Origin: a virus
IMG/VR virus record: IMGVR_UViG_3300045988_004286
Span: 1-6,260 of that record
Strand: one strand, 5' to 3'
Length of the DNA stretch: 6,260 nucleotides
Part shown: positions 493-6,260 of the stretch, piece after piece
Numbering within the stretch: position 1 is the first letter of the stretch
Layout of the letters: the number at the start of each line of letters is the position of its first letter
Made by a program: the position numbers and the translations under genes
Notes under the pieces: generated by a model
What the model was told of the DNA's origin: nothing
Seen by the model: the letters and a program-made list of their open reading frames with translations, nothing else
Databases searched by the model: none

Positions 493-2184
493 TCAATAAG
501 AAAAAACGCCAGCTAAATCGTTAGCCCTCTTGTGTTTGACCTTATCTCGACATTTCATCAATGACGCAGCAGCCAAGCGACGAACAAGAGGGAGTTTTTC
601 ATAGGGTCTTTCCTTATCAAGAACAGTCCTATTATAACGAAAAGAATAGTTACGAAGCTCATATTCGACCAAGTCCTTATCATTAGAATCTTCCAGGGTT
701 TGGTAGAAATCTACAAGACGGTTATAGTCATAACGACTCCAAAAATCAACTATTTTCTTAGAGATGATGCGCAGGAACCTATCTCGTCCATAGAGTTCTC
801 CTCCAGGAGTGCCGCTGGACCAGAAGAGCTCCGAGCATCCGTCTGTTGAATATGTTCGAATAAATTTCGAAATTCCGAGGAAAAAGCGATAGACGCGGGA
901 GAGACGATGATTAATTTCCAAATCAACACCATCATACAAACGACATTCAGTAAGAATGAGAACATCGCTATGCGGTAAATCCTCCTTAGGAGAAAGTATA
1001 TTCCAATGTTCGTTTGATTTTCCATAATTATCTACATAATCTAAATACTGTTTACAAAAAGACAATATACTCTGTTTAGAGTCTACATTAAAAGGGTCGC
1101 AGTTCAAATCGGCACATCCGCTACGAATGACTCGTGCGGGCGCTGTGAACGCAGCAAAAAGTAGCTGGTAAACGTCCGATGAAGATTTACGAATAACGTC
1201 CGAAAATCGGGGGAATAATCGAAGGATATACGGCCAAGAAGGTTTAATTGTGCGAAACTTGCCATTGCGTTCAACGACGACTCCATCAAGGCACTTATTG
1301 GCAGCTTCATCAACTTCGGCAAGTCGTACCGTTCGAGGAAAGAGATTTGATTCTGTAAATCCAATGGAATGGAAGGACTTAGGTCGTACCACTTTTGGCA
1401 TCTGAGTATAAAAGTCGGGTAAAGCGACAAAACTGTTAAGATACGACGCAACATACAGTGCTGCGTATCCTCGCGAGAGTGACGTATCACAACGACCGTA
1501 AGACCAAGCCTTAGGTACATTTTCACAAATAGTTTCCGAGAATCGTTCGGAATTGGACAACAGTAACAAGTGCCAATGCGGGCGGAAACTGGTAGGGCCG
1601 TATTCTGATACAGCGTAGTAACGTAATTTTTCATCCGGGTAGTAACTTCTTAAACGTTTTAAAAATAAATCGAGGTCCCTATTACAAATATAAGGAATCC
1701 TATTCGGGACATTATGCTTAATCTTCTCAAGAAGAGAAAGCATATCCTTAGATTTCATAGGATAAGTAAACTTAACTTCGGGGTCCTTGAAGGTTCGCTC
1801 AACCGTAGAAGTTTTCAACTTAACAGAAGCAGTACGAGGAACGCTGCGAAAACCAAAAAGATAAGTATTAGGGTCATCAGCATCCAAGTCATTGATATCG
1901 GGTATACAGGATACATCAGCAATATCATCCGTACAAGTTTCAATAACCGAAACTTCCAAAGTAGGAAGGTAACAAGGAGCATAAGTAAGAGTAACAAAAT
2001 ATGCATAACGGAATTGAGCAGAATAAGTAGTAAGAAGGTTTGTCTGAATAGCAGAACGACGGAGAAGACAAGAGGGGCAAGAACCGCAAGGGACAACAAC
2101 GGATTCACCTGTATACTTGTTAACAACCGTACGAGGGTGCTGACAACGAGTCAACAACTTATTCTGCAATTCCTTAGTAATCAT
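493..2184 (-). CDS. VP4: Rolling-circle replication initiation protein (HUH endonuclease; VP4 / phiX A-like), 563 aa
   Basis: Motif I YFVTLTY, motif II HWHLLL (HUH) and motif III with paired tyrosines YVASY (compare phiX174 gpA YVAKY). N-terminal Cys cluster CGSCPSC as in gokusho/alpavirus VP4. ATG 2184..2182 overlaps the upstream stop (ATGA). A 32-nt AT-rich spacer separates it from the capsid ATG. Confidence 0.93.
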   Translation of the reverse strand: MITKELQNKLLTRCQHPRTVVNKYTGESVVVPCGSCPSCLLRRSAIQTNLLTTYSAQFRYAYFVTLTYAPCYLPTLEVSVIETCTDDIADVSCIPDINDLDADDPNTYLFGFRSVPRTASVKLKTSTVERTFKDPEVKFTYPMKSKDMLSLLEKIKHNVPNRIPYICNRDLDLFLKRLRSYYPDEKLRYYAVSEYGPTSFRPHWHLLLLSNSERFSETICENVPKAWSYGRCDTSLSRGYAALYVASYLNSFVALPDFYTQMPKVVRPKSFHSIGFTESNLFPRTVRLAEVDEAANKCLDGVVVERNGKFRTIKPSWPYILRLFPRFSDVIRKSSSDVYQLLFAAFTAPARVIRSGCADLNCDPFNVDSKQSILSFCKQYLDYVDNYGKSNEHWNILSPKEDLPHSDVLILTECRLYDGVDLEINHRLSRVYRFFLGISKFIRTYSTDGCSELFWSSGTPGGELYGRDRFLRIISKKIVDFWSRYDYNRLVDFYQTLEDSNDKDLVEYELRNYSFRYNRTVLDKERPYEKLPLVRRLAAASLMKCRDKVKHKRANDLAGVFSY

Positions 2185-2489
2185 TTTCTATCAGTAAAAT
2201 TAAGTTCCATCTGGCGAGGCTTACGACCACGAGCAAAAGAAACGTGAACAAATGTGCGATATTTTATGAGCTGGTCAAATTTAAAGGAAGAACCTTTAAT
2301 CCTAGAGATGAAGCCATCAACCGAAAGGTCGACAGGCTTTAAATCAATGGCATCACCGGTCAGATGCTGGGAAGTCCTAGAACCATTACATGCAATATTC
2401 TGTTCTTCAGTGCGAAAGGCAGAAGTAACAGTAAAATGAATGTTCTGACGGAGAAGCCATTCAACAAACTTCATTAAATCTGGATTCAT
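2181..2489 (-). CDS. Peptidase M15-type (LAS family, VanY/Peptidase_M15_3-like) zinc peptidoglycan peptidase, 102 aa; putative endolysin
   Basis: Translation contains SAFRTEEQN (SxxR..N block), H-x6-D (SQHLTGDAID) and a distal His (FVHVS). These are the three Zn ligands in the spacing typical of M15 D-Ala-D-Ala / L-Ala-D-Glu peptidases. No signal peptide is visible. T-ending codon bias matches the other genes. Confidence 0.8.
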   Translation of the reverse strand: MNPDLMKFVEWLLRQNIHFTVTSAFRTEEQNIACNGSRTSQHLTGDAIDLKPVDLSVDGFISRIKGSSFKFDQLIKYRTFVHVSFARGRKPRQMELNFTDRK

Positions 2490-2755: not shown

Positions 2756-2797
2756 AAACTCAAAAATTTAAATTATACATTGATTTTAAAAACAACA

Positions 2798-2834
2798 CAA
2801 AGGTATAAATAAAATTTTGAGAGAACCAAACAAA
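2798..2834 (-). promoter_or_regulatory. Bacteroidetes-type promoter candidate: -33 TTTG (2830..2827; a second TTTG at 2834..2831), 21-nt spacer, -7 TACCTTTG (2805..2798)
   Basis: Minus-strand reading is caccgcTTTGTTTGgttctctcaaaattttatttaTACCTTTGtgttg. This matches the Bacteroides consensus TTTG-N19-21-TAnnTTTG. It sits in an AT-rich stretch about 43 nt upstream of the first ORF's ATG (2755). Confidence 0.45.
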
Positions 2835-3158
2835 GCGGTGTATTATTAACATAAATAAACGATAAGCTATGCGGGTGGCAGGCTGGTCTGTGAGTTTGCG
2901 CTATTTAGACAAGAGGAGACTGAAAGCTATGAGGTAAATAGCTTTCCCTTCGGGCAAACTCATGTAGGCTTCGCCAAAATATTTTTAGGGGTATAGCAGC
3001 GACGGGAGAAAGAGGCTCTCCGGGAGATTGCATACGCGTTGCAAGCATCAAGCTTCAAGGAAGGCAGTACTATAGCCTGGCGGCTCTGATTTCAGTCCTA
3101 ACGTCCCGAAATTCAGTAGGTGTATAACCACGCTACGCGCGGTGCCGGAAGTTACTCC
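2835..3158 (-). other. Non-coding, GC-enriched, hairpin-dense intergenic region; candidate complementary-strand origin (ssDNA initiation site) or structured RNA
   Basis: Stops occur in all three minus frames. GC is about 50% by hand count over 2881..3180, versus 37% in the one comparison line counted (1..60); most of the remaining sequence looks comparably AT-rich by eye. Perfect stems: 2891-2899/2954-2962 (9 bp) enclosing 2922-2930/2938-2946 (9 bp, 7-nt loop) and a mini-hairpin 2947-2953. Further stems: GGCGAAGCC mini-hairpin (viral strand, 2975..2967), palindrome AAAATATTTT 2976-2985, 3005-3009/3017-3021, 3028-3032/3040-3044, and 3086-3093/3108-3116 (8 bp plus a bulge) with a possible pseudoknot 3097-3100/3117-3120. 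Confidence 0.6.
2891..2962. repeat. Nested inverted repeats forming a three-way-junction-like fold
   Basis: tgagtttgc (2891-2899) is the exact reverse complement of gcaaactca (2954-2962). gaaagctat (2922-2930) is the exact reverse complement of atagctttc (2938-2946). Confidence 0.8.
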
Positions 3159-3197
3159 AAACAGCAAAACCCGACGCGTATCACTACGAGCCGGGTA
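3159..3197 (-). terminator. Intrinsic-terminator-like hairpin plus T-tract, about 22 nt downstream of the VP2 stop
   Basis: Minus-strand reading is ACCCGgCtCGTA-GTGA-TACGcGtCGGGT followed by TTTGCTGTTTGG. Outer stem is 3169-3173/3192-3196 (5 bp). Inner stem is 3177-3180/3185-3188 (4 bp) plus pair 3175/3190. The loop is a GNRA-type GUGA on the coding-sense strand, and a T-rich tail follows. Confidence 0.4.
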
Positions 3198-3218
3198 AAC
3201 ACACAACAAACAAAAGTA

Positions 3219-4280
3219 CTACCAGGGCAGAAAGTTTCCTATAGTATTACCGATAGAAGTACCATAATGAACAGCCTTATCAGCGTCATAATACTTGTAT
3301 TTCTTGCCTTCATTACGAGAACGATACCAGTCCTCAATGCTACGAGAACGGGCACGCTCGCGATTGAATTTAGCAGCTTCAAGCTCAAATTCAGCATTTG
3401 AATGATTAGCGGCATTAGAAGCACGAATCAAAGAATCAGCAGTAGATTCAGCGACCTTATTGCTAATTTTCTGACCTTTGGCACGGGCATAAGTCAATAC
3501 CTCATCAGCAAGAACTTTTTTGGCCTGGTTATAGTTCAAATGACCATGAGACATCTGATTATAATATTCAGAAGCCTTGACATTCAAATCAGCCTGCTGT
3601 TGCTGGTCAAGATACTTGTTAAGAACAGTCTTGGATTCAGCATCAAGCAACTGGGAGGTACCTTGTGCCTGGAGAAGACGTCCGGCAAAAGCCATATTAT
3701 CAAGTTCCTGCATTTCCTTGGAATAACCAAGCTGAGCACGAGCCAAACCGGTAGCCTTCAAGTAATCACGAGTTTCCTTAGTCATCTTGGACCAATCGAC
3801 ATTGGAGAGAGCCTGCATAGCCTGGGCATCCGCAAGGTTTTTCTGTCCTTGCAACTGTGAAACCTGGGCTTGCTGAACCTGGGACTGGAATACGGAACCG
3901 ATAGCTTGCTGAATGCCCGAAAAATCTGCCTGGAAAGGCTGCATGACAGCAGAACCGGCAGAAGAGGCAGAAGCACCGGGACCGACAGACTGGGCAACAC
4001 CGGCAGAACCACCGTTCATCATCAGATAAGGATTTAAACCGGCTTCTTCGAGACGTTGACGTTGCGCGGAGGCAGTATTATATGCATTTTCCTTATTCCA
4101 CATATTTTCCTGGAAATCGCGCTGCTGCATTGCCATACGCTCGTTAAACTGGTTGTTCATCTGATTTATCTTATAATTCATCTGGTTAGTCTCCTGGACA
4201 TTCTGTCTGTTCTGCGAGTTCTGAATAGCAGAAGAGCCAATGCCAAGAAGACCACCAGCGATAGAACCAAGAAGACCCAT
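3219..4280 (-). CDS. VP2: Minor capsid / DNA pilot protein (VP2 / phiX H-like), 353 aa
   Basis: Gly-rich hydrophobic N-terminus MGLLGSIAGGLLGIGSS. Long Gln/Asn/Ala-rich, coiled-coil-like body. The block FQENMW..NAYNTASAQRQRLEEAGLNPYLMM resembles the conserved FQE.M..TA.QR...AGLNP region I recall from microvirus VP2 proteins. ATG 4280..4278 overlaps the upstream TAA by 1 nt (TAATG). Confidence 0.82.
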   Translation of the reverse strand: MGLLGSIAGGLLGIGSSAIQNSQNRQNVQETNQMNYKINQMNNQFNERMAMQQRDFQENMWNKENAYNTASAQRQRLEEAGLNPYLMMNGGSAGVAQSVGPGASASSAGSAVMQPFQADFSGIQQAIGSVFQSQVQQAQVSQLQGQKNLADAQAMQALSNVDWSKMTKETRDYLKATGLARAQLGYSKEMQELDNMAFAGRLLQAQGTSQLLDAESKTVLNKYLDQQQQADLNVKASEYYNQMSHGHLNYNQAKKVLADEVLTYARAKGQKISNKVAESTADSLIRASNAANHSNAEFELEAAKFNRERARSRSIEDWYRSRNEGKKYKYYDADKAVHYGTSIGNTIGNFLPW

Positions 4281-4773: not shown

Positions 4774-6260
4774 TTAGTAAGGTACACCATCACGAGACAA
4801 ATTACGGGCAACATAGCAACCGATATAAGAGTTAACCAACAATTGGTCAGTATCCCAAGCAGAAGTAGCCTTAACGCCAAAAATAGAATCAAGAACAGAA
4901 GGATTAACCTTGAAGAACTTGTAATTCAAGACAACTCTAGTGTCCTGGTCAACATTACCATCTTGATAACCAAAACCAAACCATCCGGAAAGGAGAGATT
5001 CAGTAACAGGAGAAACCCAAGATTTGAGAGTGGTAGTAAAGGCACCATTAACAACATCAAGCTTAGTTTTCCAATTGAAATAACGGGGATTATAACCTGC
5101 GTTAAACAGATTAACAATAGAAGCTTTCGGAGAATTGAAAATCTGCGTCATAGGAAGAACTTCCATGCCAATGTTATCAAATTCCGGAATAGGAAGGGAC
5201 TCAGCATCGGTAACAAGCAGCTGACCATCCTGTCCAGTAATTGTGTAATCAAGCAAAGGAACGGCATGATAGATGCACATAACGACACAATGTTCGTCAG
5301 TCGTATAAGTAAATGAACCGTTTCCTGTACCGACACCTTTACCGGCAATAACGGCAGTATCGTTTTCAGTAGAAAGGTTATTATTCACAACTTCACTAAT
5401 GTCGAGGTTACGGGAAATACCACCGATATAGGTACACATATTAGAAAGAGCTTGAGGCAAGTTCACACCAAAATGTTTACGAATCTGTTCGCGATAATCA
5501 GAATCACCGGACTGGCTGATTTCTTTCCAACGTTGAAGAGCCTCGGCTTGACGAAGGGCAAGAACAGTCATTTGAGAAGATATATCCTTAAGACTGACAT
5601 AAAGACTGGAATCTTTAGCAACAGTCTCACCAGTAGGAAGATGAACAGAAATAGGAGAACTATTTGCAGCAGAAGACAACGCAGTAGCAACGTCAACAGA
5701 GCGAGAATTGCCAGAAGCATCAGAAACAAAAACACCAGGAGTAGAATTACCCAAATCAATAACAGCAACATCACCAAACTGGGAGTTCGGAAGAACACCC
5801 ATCAACATGTCCTTGTTCCAATTACAATATCTGAGGTCAAACATTGTATCGGATTTCCAATAATCGGAACCGGAAGAAGGAAGAGAAGAAATCAGAGAAG
5901 GAGAAATACCAGAAAAATAGTCAACATTGTAAGAAGAAGGATTAGCATTCTCCCACTGAGACCATCGGAAAAAATCCTGGTAAATTTTCTGATACGCTAA
6001 AATAGGGAAAAGATTCACAACGGTATTTTGAATGTATTGCTGAGTATAGTTCGACGATGGATTACTAAGAACTACAGTTGACCACCAACGAGAACCTTTA
6101 TCAGGAGCTTCCTTTACAAAATTACCATAACCAAGATAACTCAACAACTTAAAAGACAAATCAGAACGGAAGAATCCAAAAGAATTCAACAATGAAGAAG
6201 TAGTATTACCAGGGTTTGAAGAAGCTCCATTCAAAGAAGTCAAAACGCCAGAAAAAAAAG
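4774..6260 (-). CDS. VP1: Major capsid protein (VP1/F-like), 3' part. 6162..6260 duplicates 1..99. Stop TAA at 4776..4774.
   Basis: Track ORF 4774..6243. Its listed 'M' is an internal TTG (Leu) codon, and the frame stays open to the window end. Capsid-like blocks include LRQAEALQRWKE, YREQIRKHFGV and YIGG. Strong T-ending codon bias is shared with the other minus-strand genes. Confidence 0.93.
   Translation of the reverse strand, partial: FFSGVLTSLNGASSNPGNTTSSLLNSFGFFRSDLSFKLLSYLGYGNFVKEAPDKGSRWWSTVVLSNPSSNYTQQYIQNTVVNLFPILAYQKIYQDFFRWSQWENANPSSYNVDYFSGISPSLISSLPSSGSDYWKSDTMFDLRYCNWNKDMLMGVLPNSQFGDVAVIDLGNSTPGVFVSDASGNSRSVDVATALSSAANSSPISVHLPTGETVAKDSSLYVSLKDISSQMTVLALRQAEALQRWKEISQSGDSDYREQIRKHFGVNLPQALSNMCTYIGGISRNLDISEVVNNNLSTENDTAVIAGKGVGTGNGSFTYTTDEHCVVMCIYHAVPLLDYTITGQDGQLLVTDAESLPIPEFDNIGMEVLPMTQIFNSPKASIVNLFNAGYNPRYFNWKTKLDVVNGAFTTTLKSWVSPVTESLLSGWFGFGYQDGNVDQDTRVVLNYKFFKVNPSVLDSIFGVKATSAWDTDQLLVNSYIGCYVARNLSRDGVPY
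6162..6260. repeat. Terminal redundancy, copy 2 (identical to 1..99)
   Basis: Same comparison as copy 1. Non-redundant genome is 1..6161. Confidence 0.97.

Follow-up and report, generated by a model that had tools for sequence, protein, structure and literature searches.

A structured non-coding gap in a gene-packed genome

Why should a small virus with closely packed genes keep several hundred nucleotides (nt) of non-coding DNA? This question is raised by the window analysed here, i.e. the whole stretch of 6,260 nt taken from the IMG/VR record IMGVR_UViG_3300045988_004286. It comprises a circular microvirus genome of about 6,160 nt, with positions 6161-6260 repeating positions 1-100, and all the genes are encoded on the minus strand. 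The initial annotation had singled out a block at 2835-3158 as GC-enriched, hairpin-dense and non-coding, and had read it in the first place as a complementary-strand origin. This block lies in a gap of 463 nt (3218-2756) between the pilot gene and small open reading frames (ORFs), which was indeed found to be the sole sizeable non-coding stretch of the genome, all the other spacers being at most 32 nt long. Since the gap is the only large non-coding region, an obligatory complementary-strand origin would have few other places. From the comparative analysis reported below, we propose, with a probability of about 0.6, that the block is a host-recognised complementary-strand (single-strand, minus-strand) origin, similar to the single-strand origins (sso) of plasmids.

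No conserved ORF was found in the block, the length differences to the window not being multiples of three in 35 of 53 relatives. In Dulem virus 257 (L002 1463-1666), a GenBank coding sequence (XCD03224.1, hypothetical protein) spans the element; it is probably spurious, because the indels are not multiples of three and the substitutions follow a compensatory pattern. The two ACGCGT palindromes reported in this region were present at 3034-3039 and 3174-3179, and the stems named in the initial annotation were likewise found to be there. The GC enrichment stood in part: the GC content was 0.48-0.54 at 2901-3200 compared with about 0.41 overall, but this is not unique to the block, as the pilot gene reaches 0.51-0.55.

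In terms of folding energy, the density of hairpins did not exceed chance. With DNA parameters, the z value for 2835-3158 was -0.65 on both strands; with RNA parameters, the folding of 2756-3218 was only modestly better than that of shuffled sequences (z = -2.9 and -2.4). By the shuffled-sequence control that had been named beforehand, energy alone thus fails to set the block apart (z = -0.65 with DNA parameters); the evidence for a function of the block is comparative.

Helices kept by compensatory changes and their folding strand

The comparison of relatives resolved the block into two structured modules, the parts of which are as follows.

2985-3158, minus strand: module B, the portable core, with helices Ha-He, Hg, Hh and Hi
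3158-3147, minus strand: helix Ha, module B
3146-3144 with 3065-3063, minus strand: helix Hb, module B
3143-3127, minus strand: helix Hc, module B, a GCGTAGC mini-hairpin
3116-3086, minus strand: helix Hd, module B, a bulged stem with tandem G.A pairs and an inner c-GTTA-g
3085-3074, minus strand: helix He, module B, c-GCCA-g
3049-3046 with 3004-3001, minus strand: helix Hh, module B
3044-3028, minus strand: helix Hg, module B, weak (73% of cells paired)
3021-3005, minus strand: helix Hi, module B, weak (67% of cells paired) and absent in some genomes
3119-3158, minus strand: most conserved core of module B, GGAGTAACTTCCGGCACCGCGCGTAGCGTGGTTATACACC, with helices Ha and Hc and the unpaired GGTTATACACC
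3033-3041, minus strand: unpaired CAACGCGTA, invariant in 54 of 54 sequences, which holds the first ACGCGT palindrome in the loop of Hg
3063-3074, minus strand: near-invariant TATAGTACTGCC, single-stranded except for the GCC that closes helix Hb
2882-2975, minus strand: module A, found in the window-type lineage only, with helices A1-A4, an unpaired pyrimidine-rich stretch and the invariant tail CACAGACC
2975-2967, minus strand: A1 of module A, mini-hairpin GGCGAAGCC
2962-2955 with 2898-2891, minus strand: A2 of module A, the long closing stem
2954-2946, minus strand: A3 of module A, mini-hairpin CCCGAAGGG
2945-2923, minus strand: A4 of module A, an 8-bp stem with a conserved TTACCTC loop

For module B (alignment A3, 54 sequences, curated structure), 90.8% of the cells were paired, compared with 37-44% when the partners were slid along the alignment, and changes on both sides were observed at 17 pairs. 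For module A (alignment A4, 54 sequences, mean identity 89%), the corresponding values were 98.6%, 27-43% and 9 pairs. In both cases, the observed values were reached in 0 of 500 shuffles. The helices of modules A and B are thus kept by compensatory changes, and these include two of the structures that had been noticed in the single sequence: helices A2 and A4 are the nested stems at 2891-2962, and helix Hd is the bulged stem at 3086-3116.

The strand on which the element folds was given by the non-Watson-Crick pairs, an asymmetry that had been suggested as a check. In helices Ha-He and Hh of module B, read on the minus strand, 222 G.T pairs were counted for 8 A.C pairs, and the alignment pairs 29-42 and 67-87 were G.T in all 54 sequences. 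Furthermore, the consensus fold reached -33.4 kcal/mol on the minus strand and -17.4 kcal/mol on the plus strand. Owing to these three results, the element is seen to be built to fold on the minus strand, i.e. the gene-sense, T-rich strand of the window.

The limits of the block had to be redrawn. The conserved cassette occupies 2882-3158; the sequence at 2835-2881 constitutes a variable linker, and the hairpin at 3169-3196, which resembles a terminator, is a separate feature. The H-type pseudoknot put forward between 3097-3100 and 3117-3120 was not borne out, as for three of the four pairs only 25-32 of 54 sequences retain the pairing, without compensation. An alternative pairing of module A (GCTATTTA with TAAATAGC) exists in the window and was rejected, since it is lost in the relatives when the alignment is judged by eye.

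Over 46 nt, the core of module B is 96% identical in Dulem virus 262, a genome which is otherwise unalignable, and its columns are invariant in all alignments. On these grounds of conservation, the region 3119-3158 is a candidate protein-recognition or primer-start site.

DNA-type mini-hairpin loops

On the minus strand, the loops of the element are GNA triloops or GNNA tetraloops closed by C-G. Across about 54 sequences, the G...A of the loop is kept while N varies: the A1 loop is GAA in 53 of 54 sequences, the A3 loop is GAA, GGA or GTA in 48 of 54, and the Hc loop is GTA (38 sequences), GAA (10), GCA (4) or GGA (1). As position 3 of the tetraloops is usually a pyrimidine, the loops, judged by their sequence, are not the GNRA loops of RNA.

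By sequence, they belong to the class of DNA mini-hairpins defined in PMC13037366 (GCGNAGC or GCGNNAGC; sheared G.A pair, C-G closing pair, short G/C stem). The instances found on the minus strand are GGCGAAGCC (2975-2967), CCCGAAGGG (2954-2946), CGCGTAGCG (3139-3131), AGCCGCCAGGCT (3085-3074) and the inner c-GTTA-g of Hd. Counted as c-GNA-g or c-GNNA-g mini-hairpins on the minus strand, the block had four and the rest of the genome (5.8 kb) had none; shuffled sequences contained 0.12 on average, and four were reached in 0 of 2000 shuffles. The GCGNAGC, GCGNNAGC, CCGAAGG and GTTA-loop motifs are far more stable as DNA than as RNA and are poorly bound by the single-stranded DNA-binding protein (SSB), and mini-hairpins of this kind are found at the priming sites of G4, St-1, alpha3 and ssiA (Kimoto and Hirao, PMC13037366).

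Distribution among relatives

When 50,697 phage records were searched by blastn, the block was 86-89% identical in the closest relatives (Dulem viruses 236 and 257, bajarodmic viruses), the genomes of which are 82-83% identical overall, and fragments of the block were also recovered in more distant microviruses. Scanning with the core motif yielded 49 microvirus-sized contigs in IMG/VR and 69 profile-confirmed copies in metagenomes, mostly from the human gut. Altogether, the element was found in 131 sequences, some of which are overlapping parts of one record; 110 are distinct. In 185,579 representative bacterial genomes, 18 matches to the pattern were obtained, all of which fail the profile test and are due to chance. 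A covariance-model search for divergent copies found nothing beyond the nhmmer matches.

A genome never contained more than one true copy, the apparent doubles being concatemers or chimeras. The contigs of 27-88 kb on which a few copies lie are concatemers, or contain inserts that are also seen in free viral genomes. The element occupies the same position in all of the approximately 110 window-type genomes, and in the other genomes it is likewise confined to one major intergenic region. Two short metagenome contigs, L191 (1,634 nt) and L197 (2,731 nt), are inverted-duplication chimeras with junctions at about 2784-2842 of the window, next to the hairpin cassette; the hairpins probably seeded them as artefacts of amplification or assembly.

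In seven sequences (L003, L024, L027, L030, L041, L049 and L208), module B was observed in a variant form, the central domain of which differs (GGGGAGCAGTTACC...). These genomes carry an extra insert of about 130 nt, which ends in a GGGGTCGCAAGCGAC hairpin and is located either upstream of B or in the stretch that separates it from module A. The intergenic region behaves as a place where structured cassettes are shuffled.

Among the microviruses of Bacteroides, phiHBP1, from B. fragilis, is the only one in culture (PMC13064476). Modules A and B were not found in its genome. It has its own non-coding region of 208 nt (L232 6195-6319 and 1-83, minus strand), with the hairpins CCCGTCTA...TAGACGGG and GTAACGTTTCTGTTAC on a T-rich sense strand; this region is possibly a non-homologous counterpart of the element.

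Orientation, transfer and strand composition

In all of the 48 IMG/VR and 61 metagenomic genomes of the window type, the folding strand was the sense strand, which is T-rich (about 63% T and 12% A at four-fold sites; T about 35% overall). Module B was also found alone in genomes of another type (mar40, mar45, mar49, L041/L172, L195/L212 and L218; 8 contigs from at least six genomes), just after the Rep gene and inverted relative to the genes, and again on the T-rich strand. The sense strand of this recipient clade is A-rich (41-64% A and 9-12% T at four-fold sites), and it was A-rich in all 60 relatives taken. Module A was absent from the A-rich-sense genomes.

The module B copies of the A-rich clade come from at least four lineages, and two of them are 89-91% identical to window-type copies. 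Because the Reps of the two genome types (563 aa versus 372-388 aa) are similar only at the HUH motif, the sequences indicate that module B has moved repeatedly between the clades, at least three to four times. Through these transfers (at least three to four), the polarity towards the T-rich strand was kept in 117 of 117 informative genomes; the sole apparent exception came from the chimeric contigs L191 and L197.

The composition of the mar40-related gut clade (L060-L122) was observed separately: A makes up 31-48% and T 15-28% of the sense strand, and four-fold sites are usually 45-87% A. This is approximately the mirror image of the window clade (L011-L059). Both clades use Bacteroidota-type promoters and exchange cassettes, so that the opposite biases cannot be due to codon selection by a shared host.

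Module C (GGGCTATCCGGCTC...GCCGCAAGCGGC...), the third structured cassette, was noticed in L062 (4590-4698, mar49), L007 (1650-1720, mar63), L079 (1505-1580) and L064 (825-881). Its copies in mar63 and mar49 are 96% identical despite the different genome types. Its strand is always the T-rich one, which is the sense strand in mar63 but the antisense strand in mar49, L079 and L064.

Among cultured microviruses, a T-rich sense strand is the virion strand in phiX174, Chp2 and SpV4. In the Bdellovibrio phage phiMH2K (L230, AF306496), a cultured gokushovirus, the sense strand has 0.35 A and 0.19 T (0.47 A and 0.24 T at four-fold sites); its antisense strand is T-rich and C-poor, like a typical virion strand.

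Surroundings of the element

Read on the minus strand, the gap contains in order the pilot stop, the terminator-like hairpin, module B, a short A/T spacer, module A, the linker, a promoter and the small ORFs. The features outside the two modules are listed below, together with the genes.

3169-3196, minus strand: terminator-like hairpin just after the pilot stop (3219), with an 11-bp stem, one mismatch and a GTGA loop
3168-3157, minus strand: tail of this hairpin, TTTTGCTGTTTGG
2835-2881, minus strand: variable linker, replaced in some relatives by unrelated sequence or extra small ORFs
2846-2856, minus strand: weak XerD-arm-like TTATGTTAATA in the linker, without a XerC arm and not conserved in relatives
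2798-2830, minus strand: Bacteroidota-type promoter TTTG-N21-TAccTTTG, which reads into the 57-aa ORF, the M15 peptidase gene and Rep
from around the ends of the window down to 4774, minus strand: capsid gene
4759-4280, minus strand: scaffold gene
4280-3219, minus strand: pilot gene
between the gap and the M15 peptidase gene, minus strand: small ORFs, including the 57-aa ORF (ATG at 2755)
2489-2181, minus strand: M15 peptidase gene
2184-493, minus strand: Rep gene

The hairpin at 3169-3196 is probably the terminator of the capsid-scaffold-pilot operon and lies outside the portable cassette. It is conserved in 49 window-type genomes, with a U-rich tail in all of them, and G.U pairs appear in it solely when the minus strand is read (GU 23 and GC 24 at one pair, UG 15 and CG 34 at another). 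It is absent beside module B in the A-rich-sense genomes. A generic terminator scan missed this hairpin due to its internal mismatch, and it was analysed by alignment instead.

On the other side, the promoter motif was present at the position of 2798-2830 in 44 of 48 window-type genomes, and this promoter is the downstream edge of an untranscribed gap that holds the element. In 52 genomes, no promoter of the Bacteroidota type, the only type searched, was found within 100 nt upstream of the element on the folding strand.

The search with Rfam covariance models found nothing in 2756-3218 at E <= 10. Two weak matches were obtained in the window, both inside genes; one of them, to the mir-86 precursor at 3600-3674 (plus strand, antisense inside the pilot gene; 23.5 bits against a gathering score of 64, E = 0.06), is taken to be due to chance. 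ARAGORN detected no tRNA or tmRNA in the block. Upstream of Rep, the 102-aa ORF at 2181-2489 (minus strand) encodes a protein with a Peptidase_M15_3 domain (E = 4e-11), which is probably the lysis enzyme; an M15A peptidase is also encoded by phiHBP1.

A candidate origin of complementary-strand synthesis

The comparative tests (covariation, strand-specific folding, loops, position and transfers) are best fitted by the reading that the initial annotation had placed first, an origin of the complementary strand. This reading is suggested by the structure on one strand, the DNA-type loops that resist SSB, the untranscribed gap, the indifference to Rep and the strict polarity; the last two, in particular, are the behaviour of a single-strand origin. 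By analogy with cultured microviruses, the T-rich sense strand that folds is taken to be the packaged virion strand.

The element could then work as follows. After entry into a Bacteroidota cell, the circular single-stranded DNA (ssDNA) would be coated by SSB, while modules B and A would stay folded, given that their c-GNA-g and c-GNNA-g caps are very stable and bind SSB poorly. We infer that a priming enzyme of the host would recognise the folded shape together with the invariant unpaired stretches GGTTATACACC, TATAGTACTGCC and CAACGCGTA, and would lay the primer for complementary-strand synthesis at the element. Candidate enzymes are primase (as in G4, St-1 and alpha3), RNA polymerase (as in the Ff phages and plasmid sso) and the PriA primosome (as in phiX174). 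Module B would represent the self-sufficient host-recognised core, exchanged between unrelated microviruses, and module A a lineage-specific accessory.

Several observations weigh against this proposal. No homology of the element to characterised origins was found, the blastn search of the 50,697 phage records having returned only related gut microviruses, and the folding of the single sequence is no better than that of shuffles when DNA parameters are used. The G.T pairs and the G...A loops could be those of an RNA as well. The element is missing from most of the A-rich clade (60 genomes) and from phiHBP1, and is thus one solution among several. The independent transfers are few, about four for module B and two for module C, and the polarity kept during transfer could stem from recombination (copy-choice on strands of the same polarity) rather than from selection. 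Finally, the cultured phiMH2K breaks the rule that the T-rich strand is the packaged one, on the polarity that is assumed for this phage.

The family Microviridae is defined as positive-sense. If the folding strand is the packaged one, the A-rich (mar40) clade, of which more than 60 genomes were sampled, might package its antisense strand and consist of negative-sense microviruses; origin cassettes would in that event be exchanged freely among microviruses, according to the packaged strand and not to gene orientation. This extension is put forward tentatively, as a possibility to which we give less than even odds. Elsewhere in the A-rich clade, a genome-wide count of mini-hairpins on the two strands (34 versus 31) gave no information on polarity. 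The main non-coding region of the human-gut A-rich clade, of only about 155 nt, contains an ordinary sense-strand terminator and is uninformative on polarity.

Alternative explanations

The element might act as RNA, either as a 3'-untranslated or read-through structure of the structural-gene mRNA (with a role in stability, processing or the control of the operon downstream) or as a non-coding RNA of its own, the latter having been proposed as a structured phage RNA at the outset. In the window lineage the folding strand is the sense strand, so that read-through transcripts would include the element; G.U pairs and G...A loops are also found in RNA, covariation cannot separate RNA from ssDNA, and folding with RNA parameters slightly beats the shuffles (z = -2.9). 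However, we consider this explanation unlikely, since the gap yielded no Rfam match at E <= 10 and no tRNA or tmRNA, and the element follows a conserved terminator-like hairpin, with no promoter before it in either genome type, while an RNA gene should have its terminator downstream. In at least six genomes, moreover, the element directly adjoins the 3' end of Rep and runs antisense to every gene, and there the mRNA version fails. The loops are triloops and GNYA tetraloops and not GNRA or UNCG, and their motifs are much less stable as RNA (PMC13037366). A gene for an RNA would, in addition, have no cause to follow the T-rich strand. A dependence on Rep is another alternative: in a plus-strand origin (Rep binding and nicking, termination of a round), especially at the core 3119-3158, or in a replication-packaging signal, inversion would switch the strand that is displaced and packaged, and an origin which fixes the displaced strand would alone explain why orientation tracks composition. 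The core is extremely conserved, even in Dulem virus 262, which recalls the invariant 30-nt origin of phiX-like phages; the near-repeats GGTGTATAGC and GGTGTATAACC flank module B, and HUH nick motifs can be common to very different Reps. Nevertheless, copies that are 89-91% identical sit with Reps of 563 aa and of 372-388 aa, alike only at the HUH motif, and this sharing of the cassette by genomes with unrelated Reps weakens the suggestion of a Rep nick or packaging signal. Most of the A-rich clade and phiHBP1 have a Rep and no element, the origin of phiX174 is annotated inside its Rep gene and its packaging proceeds without a separate signal, and a covarying multi-helix structure of about 170 nt exceeds the needs of a nick site. 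A role of this kind is accordingly held to be improbable.

Module B could also be a selfish, non-autonomous cassette without benefit to the phage, mobilised by an HUH enzyme via single-stranded intermediates like IS200/IS605, with insertion into the exposed strand setting its polarity. Transposons that move as ssDNA typically have hairpins on one strand and insert with a bias in polarity, and this explanation is favoured by the patchy presence in the A-rich clade, the near-identical copies in unrelated genomes, the discrete boundaries and the shuffling of module C, variant module B and the extra insert in the same intergenic region. The constant position in all of the approximately 110 window-type genomes, a conservation higher than that of coding sequence, the restriction to one true copy per genome, always in one major intergenic region, and the failure to find a transposase, a target duplication or a copy in a bacterial genome render a selfish origin rather doubtful. 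An attP or dif-like site for integration by the host XerC/D is, for its part, already largely refuted and must be regarded as very improbable. It was suggested by Bacteroidota microvirus prophages flanked by dif-like sites (PMC3091885), by the XerD-arm-like TTATGTTAATA at 2846-2856 (minus strand) and by a few copies on contigs of 27-88 kb. But these contigs are concatemers or carriers of inserts known from free viral genomes and not prophages, no genuine copy was found in the 185,579 representative bacterial genomes (the 18 pattern matches fail the profile test), the XerD-like half-site lacks a XerC arm and is not conserved, and a duplex site of 28 bp would not give strand-specific covariation over about 270 nt.

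Significance of the proposed complementary-strand origin

All ssDNA phages need the host to copy the incoming strand. To our knowledge, complementary-strand start signals are essentially unknown outside the phages of E. coli, including in the microviruses that dominate the gut viromes of humans and animals. The element would provide an alignable candidate origin for Bacteroidota microviruses, with about 130 copies and two modules supported by covariance. In the passages of PMC9865509 that deal with such structures, intergenic hairpins as proposed minus-strand origins are standard for microviruses. A prior description was not found of the element family, of the exchange of cassettes between clades, or of the use of an element as a polarity marker that implies a negative-sense A-rich clade; a literature search on the strand polarity or composition of microviruses found nothing relevant. 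If the proposed origin is real, it offers a marker of the packaged strand in metagenomic microviruses that needs sequence only, and it points to a whole clade of reversed polarity. Reversed polarity, if true, bears on strand-aware virome libraries, on models of mutation spectra and on textbook descriptions of the family. Were the element an ordinary origin, the result would be useful yet unsurprising.

Comparison with known systems

The intergenic region of the Ff phages (M13/f1) lies between a terminator and a promoter, with hairpins on the packaged strand and a terminator hairpin at its upstream edge. The region studied here has the same layout, i.e. one non-coding region with a terminator upstream and a promoter downstream. 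The Ff region differs in that it also contains the packaging signal and the plus origin, and in that RNA polymerase reads a promoter-like pair of hairpins; in the stems of the element, no mimic of a Bacteroidota promoter was found by eye.

The primase origins of G4, St-1, phiK and alpha3 (Bullavirinae) likewise consist of clustered intergenic hairpins that a microvirus carries on its viral strand. Those of G4 (GCGAAAGC) and of St-1 and alpha3 (GCGTTAGC) contain SSB-resistant mini-hairpins of the GCGNNAGC type (PMC13037366), the counterpart of which in the element is formed by GCGAAGC, GCGTAGC, CCGAAGG and two c-GTTA-g loops on one strand. However, these origins are made of three simple hairpins, whereas the element extends over about 270 nt in two multi-helix modules and its host is a member of the Bacteroidota. 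Hairpins I-III of G4, St-1 and alpha3 have no sequence homology to the element by blastn against the same phage records, and only the class of mini-hairpin motif is common to both.

In the roodoodoo- and reekeekeeviruses, intergenic DNA hairpins with compensatory substitutions have been proposed as the start of the negative strand, a role that 'cannot be certified' according to the part of PMC9865509 that describes them. These hairpins are one or two in number and 13-64 nt long, and in that same part of the article no analysis of strand asymmetry, loop type or transfer is reported. The primosome assembly (n'/PriA) site in the F-G intergenic region of phiX174 is also a microvirus hairpin that starts the complementary strand (as cited in the corresponding passage of PMC9865509). 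It differs from the element in that it consists of one hairpin of about 55 nt and depends on the PriA primosome, and it has no sequence similarity to it; on phiX174, the covariance model of the element scored at chance level (8 bits, E = 0.9).

The sso of plasmids (ssoA, ssoT, ssoU, ssoW) and of ICEBs1 are structured non-coding regions of about 150-300 nt, active in one orientation on the displaced strand, which are recognised by host enzymes and not by Rep, and which are swapped as cassettes between replicons with different Reps. Origins of the ssoA type contain the conserved RSB and CS-6 (TAGCGT) motifs in a long hairpin. Taking CS-6 to be so defined, TAGCGT is present at helix Hc in the window, where its first base coincides with the N position of the GNA loop, which varies. 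Unlike the plasmid origins, module B is carried by phages, but it has the same single polarity and independence from Rep, and it is exchanged as a cassette in the same manner.

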